Below, piece after piece: positions 1,258-62,559 of a stretch of DNA of 64,000 bases (position 1 is the first letter of the stretch; every line of letters begins with the position of its first letter). Below the pieces are notes generated by a model, which was not told the origin of the DNA, ran no database searches, and was given only the letters and a program-made list of their open reading frames with translations. Made by a program: the position numbers and the translations under genes. Source of the DNA: Patescibacteria group bacterium (GTDB taxonomy: Bacteria; Patescibacteriota; Minisyncoccia; Phycocordibacterales; CAIRYW01); assembly GCA_040389185.1 (NCBI GenBank), contig JAZKAJ010000007.1:5127-69126 (forward strand). The letters run 5' to 3'.

Positions 1258-1362
1258 CTTGTCCCGTTAAAAAATCACCAAATCCATGGTGAACAATATG
1301 ATTATAATTAGACAGACTTTAGCAGAAACAAGAGATTACTCTTTAATTTTTTAATTGGGATG
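1258..1362 (+). promoter_or_regulatory. thrS leader with long-range start-codon-sequestering helix (degenerate member of the leader family)
   Basis: The distal arm CUUGUCCCGUUAAAAAAUC (1258-1276) can pair with the proximal arm AUUUUUUAAUUGGGAUG (1346-1362), which contains the thrS ATG. The same distal motif CUUGUCCCGUUA occurs in the gyrB leader. Confidence 0.4.
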
Positions 1363-3114
1363 GAAAACAAAGAAAAAGCAGAAAACTTATCAAAAAAGCG
1401 ACATACTCTCGCCCACCTTTTGGCGGAAGCGGTTATTGAAAATTACCCTAGTGTACAGTTAACTCTCGGCCCAGCGATCGACACAGGATTTTACTACGAT
1501 ATAGACTTTGGTGCTGAGAAGATCTCGGATCAAGACCTCGAAAAGATTGAAAAAACGATGCGAAAAAATCTTTCAAAATGGACAGAATTTTCACATCAAG
1601 AAGTCACTGCAGACGAAGCTAAAGCAGTATTCAAAAACAACTCATACAAAACAGAACTCATTGAGGAGATCTCCGGACGTGGCGAACCGATCACTCTCTA
1701 TACTTGCGGAGGATTCACTGATCTCTGTCGTGGAGGACACTCAGAAAATCCTGCAAAAGAAATCGGCGCTGACTCTTTCAAACTTTCTCGAGTCGCGGGC
1801 GCATACTGGCGAGGTGATGAGAAGAACAAAATGCTTACTCGTATCTACGGACTCGCATTTGATACAAAAGAAGAACTCGTTGCATACGAAACACAACTCG
1901 AAGAAGCAAAGAAACGAGATCACAAAGTTATCGGACGTGAGATGGGACTTTTTACATTCTCTCCTCTTGTTGGAGCAGGGCTTCCACTTTGGACTCCAAA
2001 AGGAACAATTATTCGAGAACTCTTGAATGATTTTGTTTGGGAACTTCGAAAAGTCAAAGGCTACGAAAAAGTATGTATTCCCCATATCACAAAAAGAGAA
2101 CTTTATGACACTTCAGGACATTGGGACAAATATGCAGACGATCTTTTCAAGATTCATACTCGTGAAGACCATCTCTATGCGATGAAGCCAATGAACTGTC
2201 CCCACCACACACAGATCTTTGATGCAGAACCCCGCAGCTACCGAGATATGCCGCAGCGATATGCAGAGACAACAATGGTATATCGAGATGAGCAATCAGG
2301 AGAACTCTCAGGACTTTCTCGAGTGCTTTCTATTACTCAAGATGATGCCCATGTATTTTGCCGTGAGACACAAATCGAAGAAGAGTGTATGGCGGTCTGG
2401 GATATTGTGGAAACTTTTTACAAGACATTTGGATTTGATCTCAAAGTCAGATTCTCAACTCATGACCCGAAAGAAAGAACTAAATATCTAGGCAGTGATG
2501 AAGTCTGGACAAAAGCAGAACTCGCACTCGAAAACTTGATGAAGAAAAAAGGAGTTGAATGGATGGACGGAACAGGCGAAGCAGCGTTTTACGGACCAAA
2601 GATCGACTTCATTGCAAAAGATTCTATCGGCCGGGTACTTCAGGTAGCAACAATCCAGCTCGACTTCAACCAGCCAAAAAACTTTGGACTCGTTTGCACA
2701 AACGAAAAAGGTGAAAAAGAACAGGTGGTGATGATCCACGCAGCGATCATGGGATCAATCGAAAGATTCATGTCGACTTTGATCGAGCACACCGCAGGAG
2801 TATTTCCACTCTGGCTCTCACCTACTCAAGTACGAATCGTTCCTATCGGTGACAATGAAATCGAGTATGCAACAAATCTCAGAAAGACCTTGCGAGAAAA
2901 TGGTATTCGAGCAGATCTCGACCTTGGTAATGATTCATTCGGTAAAAAGATTCGAAATGCTAAAACAGAAAAGATTCCATACATCGCGGTTATCGGTAAA
3001 AAAGAAGTGGAAGCAGGACAAGTCACTCTCGAAGGTAGAACTGAAAAATTTGTCTTGAGTATTGAAGATGTGGTAAAGAAATTGTTTGAAGAGACAAAAA
3101 ACAAAATTAACTAG
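1360..3114 (+). CDS. thrS: threonine--tRNA ligase (short form lacking the N-terminal TGS domain)
   Basis: 584-aa ORF with class II aaRS motifs and ThrRS-specific segments (RDHKVIGREMGLFTF, HAAIMGSIERF) and a C-terminal anticodon-binding domain. Confidence 0.93.
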   Translation: MENKEKAENLSKKRHTLAHLLAEAVIENYPSVQLTLGPAIDTGFYYDIDFGAEKISDQDLEKIEKTMRKNLSKWTEFSHQEVTADEAKAVFKNNSYKTELIEEISGRGEPITLYTCGGFTDLCRGGHSENPAKEIGADSFKLSRVAGAYWRGDEKNKMLTRIYGLAFDTKEELVAYETQLEEAKKRDHKVIGREMGLFTFSPLVGAGLPLWTPKGTIIRELLNDFVWELRKVKGYEKVCIPHITKRELYDTSGHWDKYADDLFKIHTREDHLYAMKPMNCPHHTQIFDAEPRSYRDMPQRYAETTMVYRDEQSGELSGLSRVLSITQDDAHVFCRETQIEEECMAVWDIVETFYKTFGFDLKVRFSTHDPKERTKYLGSDEVWTKAELALENLMKKKGVEWMDGTGEAAFYGPKIDFIAKDSIGRVLQVATIQLDFNQPKNFGLVCTNEKGEKEQVVMIHAAIMGSIERFMSTLIEHTAGVFPLWLSPTQVRIVPIGDNEIEYATNLRKTLRENGIRADLDLGNDSFGKKIRNAKTEKIPYIAVIGKKEVEAGQVTLEGRTEKFVLSIEDVVKKLFEETKNKIN

Positions 3115-3747: not shown

Positions 3748-3790
3748 AAATCAAACAGCACCGCGGCGTAGCCGCGGTGCTGTTTTAAAT
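3748..3790. terminator. Family-1 conserved bidirectional terminator (T1a): A-run, CAGCACCGCGG-CGUAG-CCGCGGUGCUG, U-run
   Basis: GC-rich perfect hairpin flanked by AAAATCAAA and TTTTAAATTT. One of 5 near-identical copies in the window. Sits 38 nt past the sortase stop. Confidence 0.6.
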
Positions 3791-3827: not shown

Positions 3828-4472
3828 CTATTTCGCTTCCTTACTTACAAACATTGCTTCCGCAACATACCTCTCCTGCTTTTGTCCAAACGTATTACAA
3901 GTTGAAAGTGTCAGCATATTTTTGTCTGTTCCAAAATCAATGAATTCCTTTGTTGCATCTACAAGAGAAACTTTTTCTACCGAATATGTATATCGACTTG
4001 TTGCAGAATCAACGTAAATCAAATCTCCCGCTTTTAATTTTTCAATTCCGTTTAGAGACTTGTATGCTTTGTTCTGTACTACTGCCCAGTTTGAACTGTG
4101 TCCAAAGATAAGTACATTGCCGCTACCTAATAATGCCGAGTCAGGGTATCGTATTGTCCCACGAGTGAGATACTCATCGAGGATCGTATTATCTTTTGTT
4201 GTTGGATTTTGCACCAAAATATCAATATCGGTATTAGGGATTGTGAGGTGTATAGGTTCTTCACCAGCTTCTTTTGGTAGAGTAGCTTTTGTCTCTGTCA
4301 TTTGCATCGCATTGAACCGAATATCGTCAAGTACACCATTACTTTCGCTTGAGATCTCACTAGGTACAAGCCCCAGTGCATAGAGACCAATGAAACTGAC
4401 CAGAAATACACCTGTGAAAGTAGATACGAATCGAACATCCCCTCTTTTCCAAAAAGCCTTGTATTTATTCAT
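3828..4472 (-). CDS. sortase family transpeptidase
   Basis: N-terminal TM segment plus sortase signatures LIFGHSS and catalytic TLSTCN (TLxTC). Confidence 0.75.
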   Translation of the reverse strand: MNKYKAFWKRGDVRFVSTFTGVFLVSFIGLYALGLVPSEISSESNGVLDDIRFNAMQMTETKATLPKEAGEEPIHLTIPNTDIDILVQNPTTKDNTILDEYLTRGTIRYPDSALLGSGNVLIFGHSSNWAVVQNKAYKSLNGIEKLKAGDLIYVDSATSRYTYSVEKVSLVDATKEFIDFGTDKNMLTLSTCNTFGQKQERYVAEAMFVSKEAK

Positions 4473-4581: not shown

Positions 4582-6045
4582 ATGTCTCAAGACCCACACA
4601 TTATTGTAGAAGACCATACAAACGATGCTCCAAAGAAGAGTAACTCTATTGTTCGTGGAGCAATTATAGTTGCAATTATCCTCGTACTCCTCTTTATCGC
4701 GCTTGCTATAGTTAAATTCGTACCAAAACTTATTTCTTCATTCGGTACTGCGAGTGTTTCTCTCTCTTCGCTCTTTAGCCCAAAAGAAAACATTACTGTA
4801 AGTGCTCCCTCTGAAGTGAAGAGTGGTTCGCCATTCACAGTAAGTTGGAAAAACAATGTGACTGAACCTGCAGGTTCACTTATGTGGAGCTACCAATGTG
4901 CTGACAATGTCACTGTTGAATATACTTCAACAGGAGGTCAGAGACCGGTTATTTGTAACACCCTCTTCCCCCTTCCAGCAACTGGCAACAGCTATTCTTT
5001 TGTTGCAAAAAACTCTGGTACAGCGAGTGTACCTGTCACAATGACAGTGGCACTCTATGATGCTGATATGAAAACTGTAAAGGTGCAAGGATCTACAAAT
5101 ATGACAGTACTCGCACCTGGAAGCACAGCAACTGTTGTCTCACAGTACAATCCTGATTACAGTGCCACAACAACACCAAGTACAAACAACAACTCAACAA
5201 ATACAAATACTAACGGAACAACAAAAACAACAACCAAGACAACTACGAACAATACTAATTACAATACAGGAGTTACAAATGGAACACCTGACTTAAGTGT
5301 GAGCCTCGTAAAGGTTGGACGAACACAGAACGACGGTTCATACATAAGTACAAATTCATTTGCAGAAAATGATCGAGTGACCGTGATATTTAAAGTAACA
5401 AATACCGGTACAGCTCGCTCTGGAACTTGGAGTCTCCGAGCAGATCTTCCTACAAAGACACAATCTGACAAAGTATATGTTTCTAACGCGCAGCCAGCAC
5501 TTAATCCTGGAGACTCATACCAGATGACAATCTCATTTGATGCCTTTGATCCAAACGGACGAAATATTATAATCACTATAAGCAACAACGACTACAACCA
5601 ATCAAACAATGTTTTGAATATTCCAGTCACTTCAAATGGTAACAATTCAAACAACGATAACAACAATAGCACCGGAAGTCGCCCAGATCTTACAGTCAGA
5701 ATCATTGATGTTGGAACAATGGGTAATAACAACCAGTTCTACTACTCAAACTCGCTTAATAGTAATGACAAGATCGCAGTAAAGTTTGAGATCCAGAACA
5801 TCGGCGGATCAAATTCTGGAAGCTTCCGATTCACTGCTGATCTCCCAACAAGTGACAACAATACATTCGAATCAAGTAATCAGTCATCACTTGCTCCGGG
5901 CGAAACAAGACAATACACACTTGGATTTGATAATCCAGACACCGGAACAAATACGATCACAATCGATGTCGACTCTGATAATGATATTCGAGAAAACAAT
6001 GAGAACAATAATGATGACTCGATGAGAGTTCGAATCAATAACTAA
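4582..6045 (+). CDS. membrane-anchored surface protein with Thr/Asn-rich linker and CARDB-like repeats
   Basis: N-terminal TM helix, an STN-rich low-complexity linker, and repeated PDL(S/T)V...VKVG segments typical of CARDB domains. No C-terminal LPXTG. Confidence 0.6.
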   Translation: MSQDPHIIVEDHTNDAPKKSNSIVRGAIIVAIILVLLFIALAIVKFVPKLISSFGTASVSLSSLFSPKENITVSAPSEVKSGSPFTVSWKNNVTEPAGSLMWSYQCADNVTVEYTSTGGQRPVICNTLFPLPATGNSYSFVAKNSGTASVPVTMTVALYDADMKTVKVQGSTNMTVLAPGSTATVVSQYNPDYSATTTPSTNNNSTNTNTNGTTKTTTKTTTNNTNYNTGVTNGTPDLSVSLVKVGRTQNDGSYISTNSFAENDRVTVIFKVTNTGTARSGTWSLRADLPTKTQSDKVYVSNAQPALNPGDSYQMTISFDAFDPNGRNIIITISNNDYNQSNNVLNIPVTSNGNNSNNDNNNSTGSRPDLTVRIIDVGTMGNNNQFYYSNSLNSNDKIAVKFEIQNIGGSNSGSFRFTADLPTSDNNTFESSNQSSLAPGETRQYTLGFDNPDTGTNTITIDVDSDNDIRENNENNNDDSMRVRINN

Positions 6046-6081: not shown

Positions 6082-6116
6082 GAAAAAGTGCCGCGGCTAC
6101 GCCGCGGTACTTTTTA
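6082..6116. terminator. Family-1 conserved bidirectional terminator (T1b): AGUGCCGCGG-CUAC-GCCGCGGUACU
   Basis: Hairpin with one G.U pair, flanked by A-run and T-run, between convergent genes (CARDB + / gyrB -). Confidence 0.6.
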
Positions 6117-6149: not shown

Positions 6150-8317
<2,168 letters not shown>

Positions 8318-22141: not shown

Positions 22142-22846
22142 TTAAGCAGAAAGCGTACCCTTTTTGTATGCATCCCTGATTCGAGATACGAAGAATTCAA
22201 TACTTGCCTTTGAAGCATCATTACCTGCAATAGGATAATCAACACCTATAATATCATTGTCAGATGATGAGAGTGTGATTATAGAGACACCCATCTGCTT
22301 TGCTTCAGCAACAGCAATGTGTTCCTTTTTTGCATCTACGATAAAGATCGCATTTGGAAGCTTTTCAACACCTTTCAATCCTTCAAACATTTCAGTCAAA
22401 GTCACGATCTCTCGATCGAACATAAGTCTTTCTTTCTTTGTGTATTTCAAGAGTTCTCCTTTTTCTTTCTTCTGTGTTAGGTCAGCAAGTCTGTGAGTTC
22501 GTTTCTTGATCTCAACAAAGTTAGTCAAAGTTCCTCCGATCCATCGGCTCGCAACGAATGGCATATTAATACTATCTGCGTATGTTCGGATGATGCCCAT
22601 CGCTTCACTTTTACTTGAAACAAAAAGGATTGTTTTCTTAGCCTTACCGAGTTCAGCGACAAATTCTTCTGCTTTTTTGAGCATTTCTTCTGTCTTTTCA
22701 AGGTCAATAACCTCAGTCATATTTTTAACTCCACAAATAAGAGACTTAAATGATGGATGTCGTCGTGATCGCAAAAAACCGAAATGTGCCCCCACCTTGA
22801 CCATTTCCTGGATGTCTTTTGAAAGTGTGTTTGTTTTGTCTGTCAT
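22142..22846 (-). CDS. rpsB: 30S ribosomal protein S2
   Basis: The MVKVGAHFGF...RHPSF... S2 signature. The longest ORF starts at a TTG (22864); the ATG at 22846 fits the S2 N-terminal alignment better. Confidence 0.9.
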   Translation of the reverse strand: MTDKTNTLSKDIQEMVKVGAHFGFLRSRRHPSFKSLICGVKNMTEVIDLEKTEEMLKKAEEFVAELGKAKKTILFVSSKSEAMGIIRTYADSINMPFVASRWIGGTLTNFVEIKKRTHRLADLTQKKEKGELLKYTKKERLMFDREIVTLTEMFEGLKGVEKLPNAIFIVDAKKEHIAVAEAKQMGVSIITLSSSDNDIIGVDYPIAGNDASKASIEFFVSRIRDAYKKGTLSA

Positions 22847-22950
22847 ATTCAAATATATTACCAAAAAGCCTTAAGAAAAGCAAATGCACGGTACCTACGG
22901 CACCGTGCATTTCCCTATATACCATATACTATACATACGATATACCAATT

Positions 22951-23850
22951 CTACTGTGTTTCCTTGTAGTTTGGCGCCTTAAGACACTGTGTATACATAT
23001 ATGAATCATCAGCAACACCATCAGGTCCTACAAGAACTCCTGCGGTACAAGTGATATTTTCAGATTCACACTGACCCTCAGCAATCAATCGCTGTTTGTA
23101 GAATTTGTGTGCTTCTCCATCTTTTAAGGCAACGCCATCTCTTGTCTCACAATCAAGCCCTGCCTGACAAGCTACCGGGGCCGAAGGAGCACCTACTGCA
23201 GTGAGATTTTGAGATTTACAGAGATAATCTTGTGTCTGACATTTACCCTTATCTGCTCCACTCGCAATCTTTGTTGAGATAGTGGTTGTTTCACCTTCAA
23301 CCAAAAGTCCATTAGCTGATGTACACAACTGGTCACTCGCTGTTACTTTCACTTTACTCCAATCCATCCATCCAACAACATCAGATCCCCAAGCAAATCC
23401 ACTAAACACATTTCCATTCAGCGCTACGCCATAGGCAGGAGCATTGCCGTTACTATTTAGACTGATCCATCCATCCCATCCTCCCCGGTTATCGATCGTT
23501 TTATATATAAGGGGATTCATTACTGATACTGCTCTTGCCCATCCAGTAAGCTTTGTCCCATCTATCTTTGCATTGCCACCGAGTGACGAATTTGGAAAAC
23601 CAGTGAGCCCTCCGAATTTGACCCATCCAATATTTGAAGACCAAGCATAACCTACGAGTGATCCGTCATCTGTGAGCGATACGGTTCCATCGTTAAAAGA
23701 GATCCATCCTACATTTGAAGACCATGAATAACCGATCACTCTTTGAGTACTGTCCACAGCATCCGCTGGATAAGTCCCCACAAGTGCCATAAGAACAATG
23801 GCGACAAACATCACACCCAAATTAAATCGAAGAGTTTTAAGAAACTGCAT
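22951..23850 (-). CDS. secreted protein with N-terminal Trp-rich repeats (consensus G(Y/F)AWSSN(I/V)GWI(S/K)F) and a Cys-rich C-terminal region
   Basis: Signal peptide. At least 4 repeats (VIGYSWSSNVGWISFN, LVGYAWSSNIGWVKFG, LTGWARAVS, FSGFAWGSDVVGWMDWS) and 9 Cys in the last 110 aa. Confidence 0.55.
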   Translation of the reverse strand: MQFLKTLRFNLGVMFVAIVLMALVGTYPADAVDSTQRVIGYSWSSNVGWISFNDGTVSLTDDGSLVGYAWSSNIGWVKFGGLTGFPNSSLGGNAKIDGTKLTGWARAVSVMNPLIYKTIDNRGGWDGWISLNSNGNAPAYGVALNGNVFSGFAWGSDVVGWMDWSKVKVTASDQLCTSANGLLVEGETTTISTKIASGADKGKCQTQDYLCKSQNLTAVGAPSAPVACQAGLDCETRDGVALKDGEAHKFYKQRLIAEGQCESENITCTAGVLVGPDGVADDSYMYTQCLKAPNYKETQ

Positions 23851-32274: not shown

Positions 32275-32300
32275 AGCTGATCTAATCAGCAAAACCACGG

Positions 32301-32335
32301 AGGGAAGTCACAAGCCTTCCCTCCTTTTTAATTTC
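32301..32335 (+). terminator. Rho-independent terminator GGAGGGAAG-UCACAAGC-CUUCCCUCC + UUUUU
   Basis: Perfect 9-bp stem followed by a T-run. Confidence 0.6.
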
Positions 32336-32336
32336 A

Positions 32337-32374
32337 AACAAAAATGCATCGCGGCTACGCCGCGATGCATTTTG
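32337..32374. terminator. Family-1 conserved bidirectional terminator (T1c), covarying variant AUGCAUCGCGGC-UAC-GCCGCGAUGCAU
   Basis: Same GCGGCUACGCCGC core as the other copies, with compensatory stem changes (CACC/GGUG -> CAUC/GAUG). Lies 11 nt past the pyrG stop. Confidence 0.6.
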
Positions 32375-32384: not shown

Positions 32385-34016
32385 TTACTTCTTCAATCCC
32401 GCCTTCACAAATGCAGAAAATATCTTCTGCGGAGCAAGAGGTCTTGCAAGGAATTCTGGATGGAACTGTACTCCTACAAAGAATGGGTGTTCGCTTTGAG
32501 GAAGCTCTGCAATCTCACAGAGAGTTCCATCTTTTGATTTACCTGAAAATACGAGTCCCGCTTTTTCAAGATCTCCCACATATTCATTATTCACCTCATA
32601 TCGATGTCGATGTCGCTCAACAATTTCCTCGGTACCGTAGGCTTTCCGTGCGATTGTTCCATCTTTGAGTACTGCAGTGTAGTCCCCAAGTCTCATTGAA
32701 TTCCCATAATTACTTTCTTCAAGTTTTTTCTTTTGTTCATGCATTATATCTACCACAAGCTTTGAGGATTTTGGATTGATCTCTCCTGTATTCGCATCTT
32801 TCCATCCAAGGATATTTCGAGCGTATTCAATAACCATAAGTTGCATTCCATAGCAGATCCCAAGGTATGGAATCTTATTCTCGCGAACGAATTTGATCGT
32901 CTCAACAATTCCATCCACCCCACTTTCACCGAATCCTCCGGGGACAATAACTCCATCATAGTCTTTGAGTATTGAAAGCTTACTTTTATCTTTTTCGAAA
33001 TCTTTTGAATTCAAGAATGAAATCTTTGGCTTTGCCCCTGCATAATATGATGAGATCTTCACCGCCTCGATCACAGAAATATACACATCAGAGAGTACAA
33101 AATCGCCTGAATCAAAATACTTGCCTACTACAGCAATATTTAATTCCTTTTTAGCATTCTTCTTTTTATTTACAAATTCCATCCACTCTGCAAGATCTGT
33201 CTTTCTTTTTGGAAGACCGAGTATTTCAGAGAGATGGTCTCCCAAATGATCCTTTTCAAAATTAACTGGAATGTCATAGATACTATCTGCATCAGGCGCT
33301 GAGATAATATTCTTTGCAAGTACATTACAGAAGACTGCAATCTTTTCTTTTCTTTTGTCATCAAGCGATACACCACTTCGGGCAATGATAATATCAGCCT
33401 GGATTCCAGCACCATTTAAAGTTCGAGCTGCATATTGAGTAGGCTTCGTCTTCATTTCACCGATAGTTGAAGGAGTAGGAAGATAGGATACCATCACAAA
33501 AGCTACATCTCGAGGATGTTCAATCTTGAGCATTCGAGCCGCTTCAAGAAAAATAATATTTTGATACTCTCCGATTGTGCCCCCCACTTCAACAATAGTT
33601 ATATCCGCATCAGCATCGTGAGCAGCATTCTTAATTCTTCGAATTACTTCCCGAGGTATATCTGGCACCACCTCAACATTCTTGCCTTTGTATTCGAGAT
33701 TCCGCTCCTTACGAATAACTTCCTGGTAGACTCGCCCCGTTGTCATATAGTTATTTCGACTGAGGCTCATGTTTAAAAAACGCTCGTAGTTACCCATGTC
33801 CTGATCGCACTCATCACCGTCTCGAAGTACGAACACTTCTCCGTGCTCTGTTGGATTCATTGTACCTGCATCGATATTGATATATGGATCGATCTTGAGA
33901 GCTGTCACCTTGAAGCCCTTTGACTTCATTATAGTTCCGATAGAAGAGGCCGAAACACCTTTGCCAACTCCTGACATTACGCCACCAACAACAAAGATGT
34001 ATTTTCGCTTCTTCAT
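32385..34016 (-). CDS. pyrG: CTP synthase
   Basis: 543 aa. N-terminal YIFVVGGVMSGVGKG, a C-terminal glutaminase domain (GICYGMQ, HPEF) and other conserved PyrG segments. Confidence 0.95.
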   Translation of the reverse strand: MKKRKYIFVVGGVMSGVGKGVSASSIGTIMKSKGFKVTALKIDPYINIDAGTMNPTEHGEVFVLRDGDECDQDMGNYERFLNMSLSRNNYMTTGRVYQEVIRKERNLEYKGKNVEVVPDIPREVIRRIKNAAHDADADITIVEVGGTIGEYQNIIFLEAARMLKIEHPRDVAFVMVSYLPTPSTIGEMKTKPTQYAARTLNGAGIQADIIIARSGVSLDDKRKEKIAVFCNVLAKNIISAPDADSIYDIPVNFEKDHLGDHLSEILGLPKRKTDLAEWMEFVNKKKNAKKELNIAVVGKYFDSGDFVLSDVYISVIEAVKISSYYAGAKPKISFLNSKDFEKDKSKLSILKDYDGVIVPGGFGESGVDGIVETIKFVRENKIPYLGICYGMQLMVIEYARNILGWKDANTGEINPKSSKLVVDIMHEQKKKLEESNYGNSMRLGDYTAVLKDGTIARKAYGTEEIVERHRHRYEVNNEYVGDLEKAGLVFSGKSKDGTLCEIAELPQSEHPFFVGVQFHPEFLARPLAPQKIFSAFVKAGLKK

Positions 34017-37495: not shown

Positions 37496-37563
37496 AAAAA
37501 GACTTCGGAGGCGGGTAGCTGAGACTTGAGGAATTCGCAAGCTTGCGAATATCCGTGCTTTTT
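37496..37563 (-). repeat. Copy A of the conserved bipartite 3' element (minus sense: AAGCACGGAUAUUCGCAAGCUUGCGAAUUCCUCAAGUCUCAGCUACCCGCCUCCGAAGUCUUUUU)
   Basis: Shares the flanks GCACG...AUA and GUCUC.GCUACCCGCCU.CGAAGUCUUUU with copies at 401-461 and 62469-62534. The central hairpin differs in sequence but keeps its pairing. Sits immediately 3' of the minus-strand gene ending at 37574. Confidence 0.55.
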
Positions 37564-37573
37564 AAGAAGTAGT

Positions 37574-43184: not shown

Positions 43185-43817
43185 TTGGAGCTCCCTCAAC
43201 CACCACACCCCACACCTATTGTTATGATCGGATCCTTCAAACTCTCTGCTCAACGGCACACCAAAGCCGACAAGCATCCGCTGGGCGACATGTTCCGCCG
43301 ACTCACCACATCCGGCATTGGTCTCAGACAGCACCACAAAGTGCAGGACCTGCTCAAGCCACTTAAGTTTGATCAGGTGTTTTACACCAAGACCGTTCGG
43401 ACAGTCACCTTGGCCAGAGCCTTACTCCACGCAAACTATCCCAAGGAAATCATTCAGATGGTCAATTATGCTTATCCCGAGCCTGATGCCCACGCCGAGA
43501 TTTGGACAATGTTCGAGGAAGCAAAAGGCAAAGGTAACGCTCCCAACGACTATCGTGACCATCGCCACTTCGGACTCCTGCTTCAGTACTGCAAAGATGC
43601 GGCCAAAAAACTGCTCGAAGCATGCCAGGGAAAAAGTACACTACTCATTGGCCATGTGCCGATGAACCAGTTCATCCTGGCGGAGATCGCAATTCTACTG
43701 GGTCAACACGGCGTCGCTCGCGAACTTATGAAGACCCGTTTGGAGCTCGGCGACCGTCTGGATGTCGTTTGGGACGGTAAAAACCTCACACCCAACATCG
43801 TTCGCCTGGCACTTTGA
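43185..43817 (+). CDS. hypothetical protein in a GC-rich (about 52%) island; weak histidine-phosphatase (SixA/PGM-like) resemblance
   Basis: The longest ORF begins at TTG 43185; the first ATG is at 43224 (MIGSFKLSAQRHTKAD...). RH...R.LTTSG and LIGHVP are reminiscent of histidine-phosphatase motifs, but RHG is replaced by RHT. Composition is far from the window background. Confidence 0.4.
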   Translation: MELPQPPHPTPIVMIGSFKLSAQRHTKADKHPLGDMFRRLTTSGIGLRQHHKVQDLLKPLKFDQVFYTKTVRTVTLARALLHANYPKEIIQMVNYAYPEPDAHAEIWTMFEEAKGKGNAPNDYRDHRHFGLLLQYCKDAAKKLLEACQGKSTLLIGHVPMNQFILAEIAILLGQHGVARELMKTRLELGDRLDVVWDGKNLTPNIVRLAL

Positions 43818-43844
43818 TACCTCGACATCTGACTTGAATACCAC

Positions 43845-43877
43845 GAAGCCGGCTCTGCATGCAGAGCCGGCATTTTA
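43845..43877 (+). terminator. Rho-independent terminator GCCGGCUCUGCAUGCAGAGCCGGC + UUUU
   Basis: Perfect 10-bp palindromic stem and T-run 30 nt after the stop at 43817. Confidence 0.55.
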
Positions 43878-43893
43878 ATACTCAAAATTTTCT

Positions 43894-47168: not shown

Positions 47169-47363
47169 ATCCCGTTCGAGATCACTCAATTAAGTAATCA
47201 AACTTAATTTAAGATTTTCACAAAACGGACTAATCATATTATATGTTAATAAACAACGGAAGTGCTCGGCAAGATAAATTAATATTTGCATATATTACTA
47301 AAACTTATTAATTAAATACTGATAGCAAGTGTGTCAAAAGCACTTCCTATCTCGAACGGGATG
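47169..47363 (+). promoter_or_regulatory. Leader of the FAD oxidoreductase gene: outer helix AUCCCGUUCGAGAU (47169-47182) / AUCUCGAACGGGAU (47349-47362) and inner helix GGAAGUGCU (47259-47267) / AGCACUUCC (47339-47347); the ATG at 47361 lies inside the outer helix
   Basis: Perfect 14-bp and 9-bp complementarities read from the sequence. Same architecture as the pheS leader, with compensatory base changes. Confidence 0.5.
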
Positions 47364-49010
47364 ACACAAACACAAATAGATGAAATAAAATCGATCATTA
47401 AAGGAGATGTTGATTTTAGTGACGAAACACTAAAGTCACACTCAAACGACGCGAGTCTTTTTGAAATTAGACCGGAACTTGTTGTATATCCAAAGGATAC
47501 AGAAGACATAAAAGCACTTGTAAATTTTGTAAACAAGCACAAAGAAACTGATCCAACACTTTCTATCACCGCTCGAAGCGCAGGAACTTGTATGTCAGGA
47601 GGCTCAATCAACAACTCAATCATCCTCGACTTTACAAAATATATGAATCGAATTATTGAGGTCAATCTCGTACACGGAATTGTAGAGCCAGGTTGTTACT
47701 ACAGAGATTTTGAAAAAGCGACTCTTGCGAAAAAAAGAATCATGCCAACCTATACAGCCTCAAAAGAAATCTGTGCAGTAGGTGGAATGGTAGCCAACAA
47801 TTCAGGAGGAGAAAAATCAATCAAATATGGTAAGACAGAAAACCATATTGAGAAACTGAAGATGGTGTTTGTTGATGGTAATGAATACGAGATAAAACCA
47901 CTTACCCACATTGAGCTTCTAGAGAAGACTACCGAGAATACTTTTGAAGGTAAAATGTACAAACAACTTTACGATCTTATTCTGGAAAACAGAAAAGAGA
48001 TCTTTGAAGCGAAACCAGATGTATCAAAAAACTCTGCTGGATATTACCTTTGGAATGTGGTGGACGATAATGAAGGATTTGATCTTTGCCGCCTTATTGT
48101 TGGAAGCCAAGGAACACTAGGAATTATTACTGAGATTACATTCAAACTTGTGCCGACAGAACCGTACGCAAATCTTCTTGCGGTATTTATGCCGGATATT
48201 ACACAAATAAGTAACATCGTAAACGAGATACTCCCCTTCAAGCCAGATAGTCTTGAAACATACGATGACTACAGTATGGAACTCGCAGTTAAATTCTTTT
48301 TTGATTTCTTCAAATCTCTCGGATTCTTTGGAGCCATCAAGCTTGGACTCAAATTTATTCCTGAAGCAATGATGATACTCACAAGAGGTGTACCAAAGCT
48401 CATTCTTCTTGTCGAGATCACAGGACAAAATCAAAAAGAAGTAAAAGACAAACTTGTAGCAATCGAAAACAAAATCCGACACTTTGGTTACAAAATGCAC
48501 ATCGCAAAAGATGAAGGTGAAGCGGACAAATATTGGAGAATCAGAAGAGAGAGTTTCAACATGCTTCGAAAACATGTACACAATCAGAGAACAGCACCGT
48601 TTATTGATGACATTATCGTGAAGCCTGAATTTCTTCCAGAATTCCTACCAAAGGTACGTGCGCTCATTGATGAGTACAAGCTCACCTACACTATCGCAGG
48701 ACATGCAGGTAATGGCAACTTCCACATCATCCCACTTATGGATCTCGACTCCCCTTTCTCCGCAGATACAATCCTTGAGCTTTCGACAAAAGTATATAAT
48801 CTCGTACATGAATACAAAGGATCTATCACAGCAGAACACAATGATGGAATTATCCGAACACCGTACTTGAAACAAATGTATGGAGACAGAATGATAGAAA
48901 TATTCCAAAAGACCAAAAATATCTTTGACCCACAAAACATTTTTAATCCAGGTAAAAAGGTAGGAGGAACTTTTGAAGATATCAAAAAATATATCAAGAA
49001 GAAAAATTAA
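47361..49010 (+). CDS. FAD-binding oxidoreductase (FAD_binding_4 / GlcD-like dehydrogenase)
   Basis: FAD-binding PCMH-type domain (ITARSAGTCMSGGSINN, VGGMVANNSGGE) and a C-terminal FAD-oxidase_C-like region. The ORF track starts at GTG 47331; the conserved leader motif ...CGAACGGGAUG supports the ATG at 47361. Confidence 0.75.
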   Translation: MTQTQIDEIKSIIKGDVDFSDETLKSHSNDASLFEIRPELVVYPKDTEDIKALVNFVNKHKETDPTLSITARSAGTCMSGGSINNSIILDFTKYMNRIIEVNLVHGIVEPGCYYRDFEKATLAKKRIMPTYTASKEICAVGGMVANNSGGEKSIKYGKTENHIEKLKMVFVDGNEYEIKPLTHIELLEKTTENTFEGKMYKQLYDLILENRKEIFEAKPDVSKNSAGYYLWNVVDDNEGFDLCRLIVGSQGTLGIITEITFKLVPTEPYANLLAVFMPDITQISNIVNEILPFKPDSLETYDDYSMELAVKFFFDFFKSLGFFGAIKLGLKFIPEAMMILTRGVPKLILLVEITGQNQKEVKDKLVAIENKIRHFGYKMHIAKDEGEADKYWRIRRESFNMLRKHVHNQRTAPFIDDIIVKPEFLPEFLPKVRALIDEYKLTYTIAGHAGNGNFHIIPLMDLDSPFSADTILELSTKVYNLVHEYKGSITAEHNDGIIRTPYLKQMYGDRMIEIFQKTKNIFDPQNIFNPGKKVGGTFEDIKKYIKKKN

Positions 49011-49012
49011 AT

Positions 49013-49048
49013 AAAAAGCGCCGCCCGAAGGGCGGCGCTTTTTATTAT
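49013..49048 (+). terminator. Rho-independent terminator AAAAAGCGCCGCCC-GAA-GGGCGGCGCUUUUU
   Basis: Perfect 11-bp GC stem with flanking A/T runs; bidirectional for the convergent gene at 49053. Confidence 0.7.
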
Positions 49049-49052: not shown

Positions 49053-50066
49053 TTATTTTGTTGTAAACGATCCCGCTTCTGATGTTGTCACATTACCACT
49101 CGCATCTGTACTTTGTACTTTGTAGAAATACTTTGTGCCAGATTTCAAACCACTTACTTTTAGGTCATGTACGTATCCGAGGTTTAACGATCCTGCATTA
49201 TCTGTTCCGTCTGTTCCAATACTCTCACTCTCACTTACCCATATTTTGCTGTTGGAAGCCTCATTAGTGATCCATATTACTCTTGCGTCACTAGTCCCCA
49301 CACTAATCACTGTGTTAAATAATATACTTGGAGCGCTTGTATCAACTGAAGATTCTGACTTGGTAGTAAAGCTGTTTATTCCACCCTGCTTAGTGTTTCC
49401 TGCCGCATCCTTTGCAGTAACTTCGAAGTAGTATTTTGTATTCGGATTCAATCCACTGAGCACTATCTTATGACTTGCTCCGAGAGATGTGTCGCTCAGT
49501 ACATTTGTACTTGCTTTAACATCATTTGCATTTGTTGCGTATCGGAGTTCACCTGTCGTTGAAGCGTTTGTATTCCAAGTTATTTCCGCTGTACTTGTTC
49601 CGATATTTGAGGCGGTAACATTTCTTACTACTACGAACGCATCAGGAGTGCTTGTTGCATGATTCCAATTGAACCAGTTTCCAAACCAGCTGTGCCACAA
49701 CCCATTAAACCATCCACCATTTTCACCCTTATCTTTGTCACCATTATCAGTTGAAGTGGCATAAGACTTGTCATGATCATCATTCCTATGTTCTGCGCTT
49801 ACAGTAGCCCCTATTCCCATATTTGCGCCATTATTGTGAGAAGCATTACCTATATGTGAATCAATTTTTGCTTCAATATTTGCGTTAGTTTTTAGATTTG
49901 GAACATTTCCATTACCGAGTAGTGCAACTTTCGAGTTTAGTAGATTCGCATTCGCAAACACTGGTACAAAAAACGAAAACATCAACACCGACAAAATTAG
50001 TTTATTTTTCATAGTATTATTTATTATCTTAATTTTAATATGTAAGAAAATCATTATAATCCTCAC
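49053..50066 (-). CDS. secreted protein with two fibronectin type III domains
   Basis: Signal peptide, His/Asn-rich low-complexity region, then two FN3-like repeats (...ITWNTNASTTGELRYATN...KYYFEVTAKDAAGN..., ...VIWITNEASNSKIWVSES...KYFYKVQSTDASGN...). Confidence 0.6.
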   Translation of the reverse strand: MRIIMIFLHIKIKIINNTMKNKLILSVLMFSFFVPVFANANLLNSKVALLGNGNVPNLKTNANIEAKIDSHIGNASHNNGANMGIGATVSAEHRNDDHDKSYATSTDNGDKDKGENGGWFNGLWHSWFGNWFNWNHATSTPDAFVVVRNVTASNIGTSTAEITWNTNASTTGELRYATNANDVKASTNVLSDTSLGASHKIVLSGLNPNTKYYFEVTAKDAAGNTKQGGINSFTTKSESSVDTSAPSILFNTVISVGTSDARVIWITNEASNSKIWVSESESIGTDGTDNAGSLNLGYVHDLKVSGLKSGTKYFYKVQSTDASGNVTTSEAGSFTTK

Positions 50067-51643: not shown

Positions 51644-51730
51644 GGTAATTGACGATTAGGAATAATATTTCTGACAAAAAATCGCAATAAATGACTTAAA
51701 CCAGGGTGCGGGGTATTAAATCCTTTTGTT

Positions 51731-51856
51731 CAACTGCGACTCGGACGCTGTGTACGACTTTATCTTCTTACGAACGGAGTGAGTATTAGAAGATAAGAAG
51801 TACTCTTGTGGTGCGAGAGTACTCATCCACGCGCTTCTCGCTTGCTGAACCCAAAA
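51731..51856. repeat. Conserved intergenic motif copy 2 (with an about 60-nt internal insertion), 88 nt upstream of the ECF sigma factor start
   Basis: CAACUGCGACUCGGACGCUGUGUACGA...GAGAGUACUCAUCCACGCGCUUCUCGCUUGCUG matches 44786-44845. Confidence 0.5.
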
Positions 51857-51992
51857 ACACTTAAACCCAATCGGGGATGTTTATTATATAAATCGAAGAA
51901 AATTTGTAAAGATAAGTTATCCACTCCGTCTTCTAATATGTAAATACAGTTAAAAAGGCGGAATTTATCGATTAATCTAACTTAAAACTAAT

Positions 51993-52094
51993 ATGAATAA
52001 TCTAAAAAATACACTTTATAAAAGTCTGCGAATTGCAGAGATCGGGGGCCTGGCTCTTGTTATGATCATTGCATCTATACCGGCTCCACATTAA
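51993..52094 (+). CDS. possible 33-aa hydrophobic peptide (MNNLKNTLYKSLRIAEIGGLALVMIIASIPAPH)
   Basis: Short ORF ending immediately before the family-1 terminator T1d on the same strand. Speculative. Confidence 0.2.
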   Translation: MNNLKNTLYKSLRIAEIGGLALVMIIASIPAPH

Positions 52095-52139
52095 AAAACA
52101 AAAAGCACCGCGGCTACGCCGCGGTGCTTTTTGTTTTTT
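52093..52139. terminator. Family-1 conserved bidirectional terminator (T1d): AAAAAGCACCGCGG-CUAC-GCCGCGGUGCUUUUUGUUUUUU
   Basis: Canonical copy with a perfect stem and long A/T flanks, 3 nt beyond the DEAD-box helicase stop. Confidence 0.7.
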
Positions 52140-52141
52140 GA

Positions 52142-53557
52142 TTAATCTACGAAAGTCAGAGCCTTCCCCTTCGCACCTCCTCGTCCTGTTCGTCCTATTC
52201 GGTGAACATAGTCTTCGTAAGTTTCAGGGAGATCATAGTTGATCACGTGAGTCACATTCGGAATATCAAGTCCTCTTGCTGCAACGTCGGTTGCCACCAA
52301 AATCTGAACACTGTTATCTTTGAATGCCTTAAGAGCTCTCTGTCGTCTTCCGTGATTCTTGTCACCGTGAATAGACTCGGCCTTAAACCCTTTTTGAGTA
52401 AGAGTATCCATGAGCTTTTCAACCCCATGTTTTGTTCGTCCAAAGATAAGCACCTTTGAAAAATCTTTACCATTCAATAGATCATGGAGTACTTCGATCT
52501 TAACCTGATCTCGCTCAACTCGCACAACATCCTGATCAACTGATTTTGATGTGTCCCCAGTTTTTACAGAGATACTGATAGGATTCTTCAAGAAATCTTT
52601 AATGAGCACCTCGATATCTCGTGACATTGTCGCAGAGAAAAAGAGAGTATGTCGTTCTGCTGGCATAAGTCCCATCACATATTTCATATCTGCGATGAAT
52701 CCCATATCAAGCATTCGATCAGCCTCATCAAGAACAACTGTCGCGAATTCTCCGAAGTTAATACTTCGTCTTCGTTCAAGGTCCTTGAGTCGTCCTGGAG
52801 TTCCGATGATAAAGTTGTTGTGATACCTGAGGTCTCGCATTTGCATGCTGATTGGTGCACCACCAACTGCACAGACAGAATAGATCTTCATTCCTGGAGT
52901 AAGATCTTTTAATTCTTGGTCAATCTGAATCGCAAGTTCTCGAGTTGGCACCATAATGAGACAATTCTGCTTTGGATCTAGAATTACTTTATTGATCAAA
53001 GGAATTAAAAATGCTGCAGTCTTACCTGTTCCTGTGTTTGCAATACCAACAACATCCTGACCTTTGAGTACATGAGGAATTGCCTTGTCCTGAATAGGAG
53101 TTGGAGTTGTATATCCTTTTTTGAGAACATTGGCTTTTAGTTTTTCTTCAATTTTGAAATCAGCAAAGAGGTGTTCTGGTTTGAAGACTTCTTGTACTTC
53201 AGTTACAACAGCTTTGTTGATGAATCGTGAGACATCGATTCGAGGTCCTTTTGATCGGAATCCTCCTCGTCCTCCTCCTCGATTACCACCACCAAACCCA
53301 CCACGACTTCCGCCACGGAATCCTCCACCCTGTGGTCGTCCATAACCACCACGACTTCCATCAAATCGGCTCTCACTTGCACCTCTACTAAATCCACCCG
53401 CAGATCGTGTAGGAGCACTGAAAGACCGAGCTGGTCCAGTAGATGCTGGTGCTCTATGACTTGTAAATCCGCCTGCACGAGGACTTGGACTTCTTTGTCC
53501 AAATCTAGATGCACCTGCTCCTCTAGGAGCTCCTCCTGTTTTGTTATACATAAACAA
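52142..53557 (-). CDS. DEAD-box ATP-dependent RNA helicase with an about 100-aa N-terminal Arg/Gly-rich (RGG) disordered extension
   Basis: Q-motif, Walker A (ANTGTGKT), DEAD (VLDEADRMLDMGF), SAT, and motif VI (HRIGRTGRGG). The N-terminus is rich in GGFRGGSRGGFGGGNRGGGRGG. Confidence 0.9.
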   Translation of the reverse strand: MFMYNKTGGAPRGAGASRFGQRSPSPRAGGFTSHRAPASTGPARSFSAPTRSAGGFSRGASESRFDGSRGGYGRPQGGGFRGGSRGGFGGGNRGGGRGGFRSKGPRIDVSRFINKAVVTEVQEVFKPEHLFADFKIEEKLKANVLKKGYTTPTPIQDKAIPHVLKGQDVVGIANTGTGKTAAFLIPLINKVILDPKQNCLIMVPTRELAIQIDQELKDLTPGMKIYSVCAVGGAPISMQMRDLRYHNNFIIGTPGRLKDLERRRSINFGEFATVVLDEADRMLDMGFIADMKYVMGLMPAERHTLFFSATMSRDIEVLIKDFLKNPISISVKTGDTSKSVDQDVVRVERDQVKIEVLHDLLNGKDFSKVLIFGRTKHGVEKLMDTLTQKGFKAESIHGDKNHGRRQRALKAFKDNSVQILVATDVAARGLDIPNVTHVINYDLPETYEDYVHRIGRTGRGGAKGKALTFVD

Positions 53558-54281: not shown

Positions 54282-55583
54282 ATGAATCCAAACGAAAATA
54301 AAACTAAATCAAAAATCTGGGATGTCATCGTCATTGGTGGCGGTCCTGCTGGAATGATGTCAGCAATACAAGCCAAGAAAAATGGTCTTGATGTTTTACT
54401 TTTGGAAAAAAATTCTCGTCTCGGTGAAAAACTCCTCATCACCGGAGGAGGCAGATGCAACGTCACAAACGAAGAATACGACAACAAAAAAATCCTTGCG
54501 AAATACAAAGGAGCGGAGCATTATCTCTACTCCCCTTTTTCACAGTTCACAGTCAAAGACACTCTCGACTTTTTCCACTTGCGAAAAATGCCTACCAAAA
54601 CAGAAGCTCTCCAAAGAGTATTCCCTGCAACAAGCAGAGCAGAATCTGTCTGGAATGTACTCATTGAAGAATTAAAGAAAAGCAAAATAGAAATTCTTTC
54701 TAATTCCGAAGTAAAAGGTTTCATAAAAGAAGAATCTTCCCTAGACGTTGGACGTCTAGGGAAGATAATCGGAGTTAAAATGCGAGGAGATAATATTATC
54801 CAGGCCAAAAACTTTATCTTGGCTACTGGGGGCAAATCACGCCCTGAGACAGGCTCAACTGGTGATGGATTCAAATGGCTTAAAGATTTGGGACACAAAG
54901 TAGCAGAACCTTCAGCTTCCCTAGTGCCAATTGCCATAAAAGACGACAAGGAGAATAATTGGTTCAAATTACTTCAAGGTATCACTCTTTCAGAAGTAAA
55001 GATCACGACAGTCCAATTCGACAAAAAACAAAAAGTATCGAAAGGTAAAATTCTCTTTACTCACTTTGGAATAACGGGTCCAACAATTCTTAATATGAGT
55101 AAAAGTATCGGCGAACTCCTCTCATATGGAGATGTGTTTATTGTCCTCGACCTCCTCCCTACTCTTGATCACGGAATGCTTAACAAAAAACTCCAGGAAA
55201 TATTTGCTCGAGAACATAACAAAAAAATCAAGAATTCTCTTGATGAATTATTTGTAAGTACACTCGCGCCAATAGTCTTAGAAAAATCAGGTATAGATAT
55301 CGATAAAAAGTGTAACAGTGTTACAAAGGAAGAACGAATGAAACTCATCGAAACCGCAAAGAACATGAAGCTCGAGGTCGAAGAACTTCTCGGAACTGAT
55401 AAAGCAATTATCACTTCAGGAGGAGTAGATCTTAAAGAAGTAGATACCAAGACAATGCGATCAATACTTTTTCCTAACCTCTATCTCGTCGGTGATATTT
55501 TGAATATTGATAGACCATCTGGCGGATACTCGCTTCAGCTTTGTTGGACTACAGGATTTGTTGCAGGAAATAATATAAAGTAA
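54282..55583 (+). CDS. NAD(P)/FAD-dependent oxidoreductase, HI0933/BaiN-like flavoprotein family
   Basis: N-terminal DVIVIGGGPAGMMSA...GGGRCNVTN and the C-terminal ...TSGGVDLKEVD... region are diagnostic of the HI0933-like family. Confidence 0.85.
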   Translation: MNPNENKTKSKIWDVIVIGGGPAGMMSAIQAKKNGLDVLLLEKNSRLGEKLLITGGGRCNVTNEEYDNKKILAKYKGAEHYLYSPFSQFTVKDTLDFFHLRKMPTKTEALQRVFPATSRAESVWNVLIEELKKSKIEILSNSEVKGFIKEESSLDVGRLGKIIGVKMRGDNIIQAKNFILATGGKSRPETGSTGDGFKWLKDLGHKVAEPSASLVPIAIKDDKENNWFKLLQGITLSEVKITTVQFDKKQKVSKGKILFTHFGITGPTILNMSKSIGELLSYGDVFIVLDLLPTLDHGMLNKKLQEIFAREHNKKIKNSLDELFVSTLAPIVLEKSGIDIDKKCNSVTKEERMKLIETAKNMKLEVEELLGTDKAIITSGGVDLKEVDTKTMRSILFPNLYLVGDILNIDRPSGGYSLQLCWTTGFVAGNNIK

Positions 55584-55596: not shown

Positions 55597-55631
55597 GAAA
55601 ATGCACCGCGGCTACGCCGCGGTGCATTTTA
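55597..55631. terminator. Family-1 conserved bidirectional terminator (T1e): AAAAUGCACCGCGG-CUAC-GCCGCGGUGCAUUUU
   Basis: Perfect hairpin between convergent genes (oxidoreductase + / surface protein -). Confidence 0.65.
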
Positions 55632-55647: not shown

Positions 55648-56928
55648 TTAATTATTAGTAACAATGACCGTTGAACTTACACTCGCACTTGCTTTGCCCG
55701 AATTTGTAACAATGAATCGAGGAGTATATGTGCCTGGCGAATTATATGTGTGAGTAAATGTCGTTGTTTGAAACACTGTCGAAGCATTTGAAGCGACTGT
55801 CGCATTTGAATTATTTATTTCATCACCCCAGACAACAGAATAACCATATGTCCCTATCGCTTGAGCAGCTGTTTGAATCACCCATGTACCCTGCTCTCCC
55901 ACACGCAAGCTATTTGGTGCATCGATACCAATAATTTGCGGACCGTTATTTGAGTCACTTATAACAGTAAATATTTTACTGTTACTTTCTGCAGTATCTA
56001 CATTCTTTATTGAGACCACATAATCTCCAGGAGTTACCTGTCGAGCAAGCATTGAACAAAACATATTAGGTGCGCAATAATTGCCAATATATTTAGGAAC
56101 CGTAAATGTGAGCCGTGTACCATTTTGTGATACCTCTCCATTATATATGGCACCATTACCAAACTTGATTATATTAATATTTGCAAATCCACTTCCGAAT
56201 AGTGTTACAACAGTTCCTGTTGAACCTTGTGCGGGTGTTATCGAATCGATATATGGATTTAAAGTATTTTGTGAAGTAACAGTAAAATTCAAACTATTAC
56301 TTGTACCATTGACATTCTTAACTTGCACAGAATAATCGCCTGGTGTTGTTTTTTGAGAAGCGGCAAATGTCAAACAAGGAGGGTTTGAATAGTAACAAAG
56401 TGGACTCAAATAATCTGGCACCATAAATGAGACTTTGGTACCATTATCCCATGCTTTTGCATGCACTAATGCCCCGTTTCCAAAGAGAATCGTATTATCC
56501 GTTGTAAAGTCTGAACCCGTTATCACAACCTCAGTTCCAACAACTCCTGATTGAGGAGACAATGAGTATATCTGAAGATTATTTGTTACGGTTCCACAAG
56601 ATATCCGCCCAATCTCAGCACGAGTCAAAGGGCCAACAAATCCAGTTGTTATAATACCGTGGTCTCGTTGAAAATTACGAACTGCATCCATGGTTACTAC
56701 ACCAAAATATCCTGTAGTAACAACATGGAAATAACCTGTGGTTGATAAGTAAGACTGTAATTTAGTCACTTCTCCACCAGTTCGCACATCACTTAAACCA
56801 AGATGGAGGTCATTAGACAATTGTATACAAGAAGAGGTTGGTGCAACACTCTCAGCTTGGGTCACAAACGCTGTAGAAAATGCAAAAACAAAAACACTTA
56901 AAAAAGTAAAGATTTTATTGGTATTCAT
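55648..56928 (-). CDS. secreted surface protein: N-terminal peptidoglycan-binding domain, two IPT/TIG-like domains, C-terminal PKD-like domain
   Basis: Signal peptide. ...VTKLQSYLSTTGYF...GYFGVVTMDAVRNFQRDHGI... fits PG_binding_1. Repeated ...SPQSGVVGTEVVITGSDF... / ...ITPAQGSTGTVVTLFGSGF... IPT-like units. ...TYTPRFIVTN... is PKD-like. Confidence 0.55.
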   Translation of the reverse strand: MNTNKIFTFLSVFVFAFSTAFVTQAESVAPTSSCIQLSNDLHLGLSDVRTGGEVTKLQSYLSTTGYFHVVTTGYFGVVTMDAVRNFQRDHGIITTGFVGPLTRAEIGRISCGTVTNNLQIYSLSPQSGVVGTEVVITGSDFTTDNTILFGNGALVHAKAWDNGTKVSFMVPDYLSPLCYYSNPPCLTFAASQKTTPGDYSVQVKNVNGTSNSLNFTVTSQNTLNPYIDSITPAQGSTGTVVTLFGSGFANINIIKFGNGAIYNGEVSQNGTRLTFTVPKYIGNYCAPNMFCSMLARQVTPGDYVVSIKNVDTAESNSKIFTVISDSNNGPQIIGIDAPNSLRVGEQGTWVIQTAAQAIGTYGYSVVWGDEINNSNATVASNASTVFQTTTFTHTYNSPGTYTPRFIVTNSGKASASVSSTVIVTNN

Positions 56929-62354: not shown

Positions 62355-62468
62355 ATATTTATACTAATTATTAAGTATAGGAATTATAACATATTCAAAC
62401 CGCCCCGTTGCCACGGGGCGGTAGGGCGTTCTGTATTTAAACACTGAAGCGGAGTCAAAGTATTTTTT

Positions 62469-62534
62469 GAAAAGACTTCGCAGGCGGGTAGCCGAGACCG
62501 AGCAAAAATTCAGCAGAATTTTATGCGTGCTTTT
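62469..62534 (-). repeat. Copy B of the conserved bipartite 3' element, immediately 3' of guaA
   Basis: The minus sense AAGCACGCAUAAAAUUCUGCUGAAUUUUUGCUCGGUCUCGGCUACCCGCCUGCGAAGUCUUUUC is nearly identical to plus-sense 401-461. Confidence 0.55.
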
Positions 62535-62559
62535 CAAAATGTACTTTGCGGAGCTTTTT

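Follow-up and report, generated by a model that had tools for sequence, protein, structure and literature searches.

The window, a stretch of 64,000 nucleotides (64 kb) from a patescibacterial contig, has an average GC content of ~39%. Pfam searches of ~60 larger ORFs identified housekeeping functions, e.g. ThrRS, PheST, GyrB, PyrG, FtsEX, RF, EF-Ts and S2, together with pentose-phosphate enzymes and glycosyltransferases. The PyrG and DEAD-box helicase proteins matched proteins on Patescibacteria MAG contigs exactly or almost exactly, and their closest homologues all belonged to Paceibacteria/Parcubacteria. Several long stretches (3115-3757, 8214-8982, 31400-31670, 43338-43893 and 51644-51990) showed no convincing ORF or Rfam match, which is unusual for a compact genome. 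At 31670-32280, two small genes of 77 and 102 aa without a Pfam match were called in both the NCBI and the Logan assemblies. Five copies of a GC-rich hairpin and one diverged relative were found at the following positions:

3753..3785 (copy 1; core 3758-3780): 15-bp stem AAACAGCACCGCGGC/GCCGCGGTGCTGTTT, canonical TAC loop on the minus strand, the plus strand reading GTA; 47 nt past the stop of a sortase gene (3828..4472, minus strand), with the ThrRS gene (1360..3114, plus strand) opposite across a 640-nt gap.
6083..6115 (copy 2; core 6088-6110): GTGCCGCGGC-TAC-GCCGCGGTAC (GTGCC...GGTAC); between a convergent CARDB gene (4582..6045, plus strand, 42 nt away) and gyrB (6150..8213, minus strand, 39 nt away).
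22882..22912 (diverged relative, subfamily B; core 22886-22908): GCACGGTACC-TAC-GGCACCGTGC with one A.C mismatch; flanked by a gene at 22951..23850 (minus strand) and by rpsB (22142..22864, minus strand), the hairpin lying upstream of rpsB.
32341..32373 (copy 3; core 32346-32368): GCATCGCGGC-TAC-GCCGCGATGC (GCATC...GATGC), a compensated exchange of C-G for U-A; 16 nt past the stop of pyrG (32385..34016, minus strand), on which small plus-strand ORFs converge.
52090..52142 (copy 4; core 52105-52127): flanks lengthening the stem to 25 pairs, G.T counted; 14 nt past the stop of a DEAD-box helicase gene (52142..53557, minus strand).
55598..55630 (copy 5; core 55603-55625): 15-bp stem; between a convergent HI0933-like flavoprotein gene (54282..55583, plus strand, 19 nt away) and a PG-binding protein gene (55648..56928, minus strand, 22 nt away).

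The canonical core, GCACCGCGGC-TAC-GCCGCGGTGC, is 23 nt long and consists of a 10-bp stem with 8-9 G-C pairs and a TAC/GTA triloop, which a locus-specific A/T extension of the stem enlarges to an element of 27-53 nt. Because the GC content of the window averages ~39%, each copy forms a GC island. A pattern search of the window with the 23-mer GCACCGCGGCTACGCCGCGGTGC at up to three mismatches returned precisely the five copies listed in a first-pass annotation of this DNA, all of them exact or compensated versions of the core, where none were expected by chance. No match to the 23-mer occurred in any of 100 dinucleotide-preserving shuffles of the window, which ruled out a chance or low-complexity origin. 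Reading of the five sequences confirmed that each copy is flanked by an A-run on one side and a T-run on the other, and the variants described earlier, i.e. an inverted loop in the copy given at 3748, a G.U pair in that at 6082 and a compensated change from C-G to U-A in that at 32337, were likewise recovered. The G.U pair of copy 2 (6088-6110) is found on the plus strand and corresponds to an A.C mismatch on the minus strand. The diverged sixth relative at 22886-22908 had been overlooked; it keeps the layout of a 10-bp stem and TAC loop, while its inner stem bases have diverged. The flanks lengthened the core stem by 5-12 perfect Watson-Crick pairs, or by up to 15 when G.T was counted, and in a hairpin census the total stems of the window copies amounted to 15-25 pairs with G.T included. 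When folded as RNA from either strand, the five copies had energies of -24 to -38 kcal/mol and z-scores between -5 and -11. All copies were solitary, the closest neighbours in the window being more than 2 kb apart, and no dimers were present.

All five canonical copies in the window were intergenic, with the nearest stop codon at a distance of 14-47 nt. Four copies occupied four of the eight firm convergent junctions (ThrRS/sortase, CARDB/GyrB, small ORFs/PyrG and HI0933-like/PG-binding) and one more a probable junction, which corresponds to 4-5 of ~9 junctions. The placement of at least four of five copies in eight firm convergent junctions among ~63 boundaries has a hypergeometric p of ~6e-4, in agreement with the earlier observation that the copies lie past stop codons and often between convergent genes. 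A putative 33-aa ORF on the plus strand (51993..52094; MNNLKNTLYKSLRIAEIGGLALVMIIASIPAPH), whose C-terminal half is hydrophobic, stops exactly at the left foot of copy 4, and if this ORF is real, the site of copy 4 is also a convergent junction. At copy 3, the converging plus-strand small ORFs are served by a separate private hairpin (32299-32324). According to the hairpin census, the canonical copies account for 5 of ~12 strong 3' hairpins in the window; the convergent junction 18895/18904 was without any hairpin, and others use unrelated hairpins.

For the distribution of the family outside the window, one degenerate pattern (GYRYCGCGGCTACGCCGCGRYRC) was scanned against species-representative genomes (~185,000 species, one genome each), metagenomes and viral contigs. 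Among the species representatives, low-GC matches were obtained in one MAG, Candidatus Taylorbacteria RYN_386, with seven pattern matches at five loci; the other 12 matches were single matches in sequence of 55-74% GC and were discarded as chance. Low-GC matches in the metagenomes came from one sample, Ga0172380, and were distributed over seven contigs. High-GC matches (GC 0.55-0.74) were dropped as family members from the genome and metagenome scans alike, being single chance matches. The core was found at 14 or more further unrelated loci from only two other sources, the Ca. Taylorbacteria MAG and the one metagenome, and the identical 23 bases recur in three genomes at no fewer than 19 unrelated loci. 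It was absent from nine loci (135 kb) of other close relatives, whose PyrG and DEAD-box helicase proteins show 75-91% and 83-89% amino-acid identity to those of the window; at the density of the window, the probability of finding no copy there is ~2.5e-5. The family is narrowly and patchily distributed. Its density was five copies per 64 kb in the window, and four copies were found within 8 kb of L016, a segment of JAQBQZ010000002.1 from the MAG, where copies 5870-5892 and 6848-6870 are separated by ~960 nt and copies 6848-6870 and 7245-7267 by 375 nt. Viral contigs and phage records gave no matches to the core and plasmid matches were only chance occurrences in coding sequence of GC-rich Streptomyces; a phage or plasmid origin was accordingly rejected. 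BLAST similarity between copies, both within and between genomes, was restricted to ~33-46 nt, indicating that the unit is the hairpin itself and not a larger element.

The 19 canonical copies from the three genomes were all intergenic and about half of them were situated between convergent ORFs. Four copies had no ORF 3' end on either side, the next ORF start being 203-689 nt away or no ORF being present there; for all others, a flanking ORF was found within ~100 nt. The orientation of the core was random relative to the genes.

Twenty-six family members were aligned together with 10-nt flanks and pairs were counted for an 18-bp helix. Paired bases were found in 88.9% of the cells; shuffling reduced this to 73% and sliding of the partner to 35-55%. 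Changes on both sides were observed at 15 of the 18 pairs and none of 500 shuffles reached the covariation values. The core pairs had been chosen in part by the search criterion, while the eight flank pairs are free of this selection. The first flank pair was A-U in 14 members, U-A in 11 and G-C in one, and was unpaired in none. On average, a copy's own flanks added 5.9 bp to the stem, whereas the flanks of other copies added 1.1 bp (permutation p < 1e-4), and bases other than A in the left flank were matched by the copy's own right flank in 30 of 50 cases, compared with 23% for the flanks of other copies (p < 1e-4). The claim that variants keep the pairing was thus substantiated by the double changes and by flanks that are complementary within a locus though differing between loci, and the alignment argues that the structure of the hairpin is under selection.

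Compensated variants of the stem also recurred outside the window. The GCATC/GATGC variant was found again in L010 and L016, a CGCAGC/GCTGCG variant at L016:6848, and subfamily B (GCAC-GGCGCC-TAC-GGCGCC-GTGC) at L035:1314, L038:1834 and L015:993. The outer stem TGCACCGCG occurred with another apex, CC-CGAA-GG or CC-TTTA-GG, at L005:2060 and L050:3319. A second recurring type of terminator, with the apex CC-CGAA-GG or CC-CAAA-GG, was observed in the window (49010-49046) and at L005:2060-2098, L016:2348-2380 and L035:13299-13337; an example is AAAAAGCGCCGCCCGAAGGGCGGCGCTTTTT, flanked by genes 47331..49010 and 49053..50066, which converge on it. The outer stem TGCACCGCG of the main family is also found in some copies of this second type, which suggests that the terminator hairpins of the lineage are modularly related.

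Three pairs of orthologous sites were compared: L001:4886 with L026:4420, L010:4959 with L024:2178, and the subfamily B copy of the window (22886-22908) with its orthologue L015:993-1015 from a Taylorbacteria MAG locus. The genomes compared are 72-80% identical in nucleotide sequence across syntenic genes, and the window and L015 are 88% identical where the stretch could be aligned. A hairpin of the same layout was kept at all three sites. The triloop was inverted (TAC versus GTA) in each of the three comparisons, with colinear surrounding sequence and with arms that were kept or compensated, indicating that the loop, or else the entire palindrome, is frequently inverted. At two of the three sites (L001/L026 and window/L015) the immediate flanks were conserved as well, which suggests old, retained copies and not recent insertions. 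Between the subfamily B hairpin and rpsB, ~46 nt (22840-22885 in the window and 1016-1065 in reverse orientation in L015) were identical at 45 of 46 positions in genomes that are otherwise ~79% identical, and this segment is probably a conserved rpsB promoter or leader.

Other junctions showed turnover. On the 3' side of the DEAD-box helicase gene, where the window has the canonical core, L053 carries ACACCGCGCC-TTTA-GGCGCGGTGT, L052 carries GCACGGCGCC-CTTG-GGCGCCGTGC and L054 an unrelated hairpin. The HI0933/PG-binding junction of L052 likewise has an unrelated hairpin. Gene order downstream of pyrG differed in every relative compared, so that no empty site could be identified in a very close relative, and in L049 this position is taken by GCCGGTTGC-TAC-GCAACCGGC. 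In the block syntenic between the window and L015, a canonical copy of the MAG lies at a convergent junction for which the window has no counterpart.

Placement and base composition together suggest that this lineage-restricted, sequence-conserved hairpin family probably represents a putative bidirectional intrinsic (Rho-independent) terminator, or 3'-end hairpin, at operon ends and especially at convergent junctions. Transcription from either strand would yield the same very stable RNA stem with a U-rich tract behind it, the hairpin would release polymerases from both directions, and the RNA 3' end would be protected. The first 8 nt after the core contained a mean of 5.1-5.2 T on both strands, compared with ~2.5 expected from composition, and the five window copies had 4-7 T at these positions on both strands. 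Each window copy therefore combines, on both strands, the GC-rich stem-loop and T/U-rich tract that define an intrinsic terminator with a position 14-47 nt past a stop codon, 4-5 of the five being at convergent junctions, and the copies were among the top matches of a terminator consensus scan on both strands. Such placement and T tracts are consistent with the bidirectional-terminator anatomy proposed in the first-pass annotation. In Rfam searches of the window, no family reached the gathering score or E <= 0.01 except three tRNAs, so that a known RNA family was ruled out for the hairpin; the best sub-threshold matches, which involved miRNA precursor hairpins as well as terminator parts of sRNAs and leader RNAs, reflect generic hairpin similarity.

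Two copies from the MAG speak against this reading. L016:298-320, a loop variant (ATA) upstream of rpmF, and L016:7245-7267, located ~250 nt upstream of rpoB, are without T tracts and are exceptions to the position at gene ends, indicating that the core can occur outside a classical terminator setting. Moreover, the A tract is complementary to the T tract, and their pairing could sequester the U tract in the RNA. Termination also leaves the identity of 23 bases unexplained, because a stable hairpin alone does not need 23 identical bases. The identical core could be kept up by copy-and-paste or replacement of resident terminators, by ectopic conversion via the common A/T-tract flanks, or by selection through a factor that reads the sequence.

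A non-autonomous mobile palindrome of the REP/REPIN or MITE kind, copied into A/T-rich 3' intergenic sites or into resident terminators, is on the whole an unlikely explanation. A trans-acting enzyme would be involved, e.g. a RAYT/IS200-type HUH Y1 transposase acting on ssDNA hairpins, and terminator activity would be a by-product that is tolerated or exploited. Mobility would fit a 23-nt core that is identical at non-homologous loci and loses all similarity within ~45 nt, as well as the patchy spread (5 copies per 64 kb in the window, 4 in 8 kb of L016, none in 135 kb of relatives) and the presence of other hairpins at orthologous junctions of relatives. The orientation of the core, random with respect to genes and differing between orthologues, and the few copies in non-terminator settings point in the same direction, whereas the conservation of the immediate flanks at two of three orthologous sites argues against it. 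The flanks consist of A/T runs and lack the unpaired GTAG/CGTC foot tag that is a hallmark of REPs (PMC3733652), and neither dimers or BIME-like clusters, nor terminal inverted repeats beyond the palindrome, nor a target-site duplication was found. A MITE is not indicated, the element being a single hairpin whose flanks are inverted complements and not direct repeats. A larger repeat or coding mobile element around the motif, which had been named as a finding that would overturn the annotation, was looked for and ruled out: similarity ended within at most ~45 nt, the scanned ORFs were housekeeping genes, and Pfam searches of the window ORFs of at least 80 aa detected no transposase, RAYT (Y1 HUH transposase) or integrase. 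It is similarly doubtful that the 23-nt palindrome is a self-propagating unit which, in a few lineages of Paceibacteria, settles in bidirectional terminators or takes their place by an ssDNA-hairpin mechanism; this would involve no target duplication, ready flipping and complementary flanks regenerated, for example, by template switching, and the core would be read by a dedicated enzyme or factor, possibly via the GCGTAGC apex. If this is true, ultra-small CPR genomes would harbour a selfish terminator element of minimal size.

The constancy of the sequence might instead be due to a host factor for which the core is a specific site, but we judge this to be quite improbable. Candidates would be a dsRNA- or hairpin-binding termination or processing factor, as proposed for TRIT, or a DNA-level binder of the palindrome or cruciform, for example at a gyrase-type site of the kind that REP/BIME are reported to provide at convergent junctions. 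Sequence read-out would be consistent with a core that remains exact or compensated at orthologous sites despite 75-80% nucleotide identity, and the authors of the TRIT study inferred likewise for their motif (PMC3152330). The layout of 10 bp plus TAC is also common to subfamilies of differing stem (window 22886, L035:1314, L038:1834, L015:993 and L049:11652). Tolerance of the stem variants GCATC/GATGC and CGCAGC/GCTGCG and of apex variants, however, points to structure and not to sequence read-out, the free flipping of the loop makes a strand-specific loop contact unlikely, and no candidate protein was found. In favour of such a factor, the GTA strand reads GCGTAGC at its apex, in keeping with the GCGNAGC consensus of mini-hairpin DNA (PMC13037366, PMC3201870); this might favour extrusion at the DNA level and template switching, and hence loop flipping and the perfecting of flanks. 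Against a host factor, the ViennaRNA DNA parameters gave identical energies for both strands; an asymmetry of the GNA triloop between strands was dropped for this reason and is a literature-based lead only.

That the arms are paired DNA-uptake sequences of the Neisseria DUS or Pasteurellaceae USS type, co-opted as terminators in an uptake-dependent bacterium, is hardly credible and was rejected: inverted DUS pairs make up ~55% of high-confidence Neisseria terminators (PMC1852404), comparable with 5 of ~12 strong 3' hairpins here, but the 9-nt arm was found outside palindromes only once in 64 kb (34948-34956) as against five paired elements, no further isolated arm was present in 88 kb of related carrier loci searched, the density is ~one per 13 kb compared with ~one per kb for DUS/USS, which are largely single and inside genes, and no uptake specificity is known for these bacteria.

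As a predicted terminator, the hairpin has its closest analogue, both functionally and formally, in the mycobacterial TRIT, followed by REPs in their 3'UTR role and by terminators built from DUS/USS. TRIT (Tuberculosis Rho-independent terminator) is a palindromic, bidirectional motif that is conserved in sequence and structure within one genus, with 147 copies per genome located at ~-8 with respect to the stop codon (Gardner et al. 2011, PMC3152330). The present family resembles it in being conserved in sequence and structure, palindromic and hence potentially bidirectional, scattered at gene ends and lineage-restricted, and in providing a large portion of the stable 3' structures. It differs in its unrelated sequence, in its location 14-47 nt past the stop for the window copies, as opposed to ~-8, and in the number of copies, of which five per 64 kb were counted here. 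TRIT, moreover, is without a classical U tract and belongs to a GC-rich genome, whereas here A/T tracts surround a GC island in a genome of 39% GC.

In E. coli, REPs located in 3'UTRs and at convergent genes have terminator and stabiliser functions (bioRxiv 10.64898/2026.03.23.713779). In common with REP/BIME elements (PMC3733652, PMC2817692), which are short (20-40 bp), GC-rich extragenic palindromes at 3' ends or between convergent genes, the hairpins are distributed in a species-specific way and differ in location from one relative to the next, and with a 23-nt core and exclusively intergenic copies they fall within that definition. The palindrome is perfect here and imperfect in REPs, and the copies are singletons with A/T-tract flanks that co-vary. 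A GTAG/CGTC foot tag was seen in none of the 26 aligned members, GTAG being present only at the apex as C-GTA-G, and REP dimers or BIME clustering were not found, every copy being single. The earlier designation as REP-like can be upheld only loosely, in the sense of a dispersed extragenic palindrome, since neither the foot tag nor dimers or BIMEs were found, nor, among the scanned window ORFs of at least 80 aa, a RAYT gene of the kind that REPs usually flank. In Neisseria and Pasteurellaceae, a single repeated sequence is used to build terminators (Kingsford et al. 2007, PMC1852404), and here too one conserved sequence gives both arms of many putative terminator hairpins; the family differs in its far lower density and in having no population of single-copy or intragenic motifs. 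Recurrent flipping of a loop between close relatives, with the stem kept, is also known from hairpin-loop inversions in plastid spacers (e.g. PMC6824564), but plastid hairpins are unique, whereas the present ones form a dispersed family with a 3-nt loop that was flipped in three of three cases. As judged from its sequence, the hairpin is predicted to be a lineage-specific, sequence-standardised palindromic terminator repeat that is a member of neither TRIT, REP nor DUS/USS.

A common origin with a second element family (CUACCCGCC), as suggested in the first-pass annotation, was not borne out; that element is ~70 nt long and non-palindromic, and the string in common is only ~9 nt. This structured element has two copies in the window, at 37498-37572 and 62467-62542 (minus strand), which are 83% identical over ~100 nt and sit directly 3' of the DUF5069 and GuaA genes. 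It has an A/U outer stem, an internal hairpin that is variable in sequence with the pairing kept by compensation, and a conserved unpaired stretch, GUCUCRGCUACCCGCCUSCGAAGUC. No Rfam match was obtained and the element was not found in the 54 loci examined. It is a candidate for a new 3'-UTR RNA or sRNA motif.

Since CPR/Patescibacteria are uncultured, next to nothing has been charted of their transcription signals, and transcription units in these MAGs would be easier to annotate with a terminator motif that can be recognised at operon ends and convergent junctions. The motif is also predicted to be a natural bidirectional terminator part of compact size. Its occurrence, within the collections scanned, was restricted to one of ~185,000 species representatives and one metagenome, and it may be used as a lineage marker. 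The family also makes a case for asking why lineages standardise their terminators on one exact sequence, a question common to mycobacterial TRIT and REPs, to which rapid loop inversion and co-varying flanks are added here as evidence.
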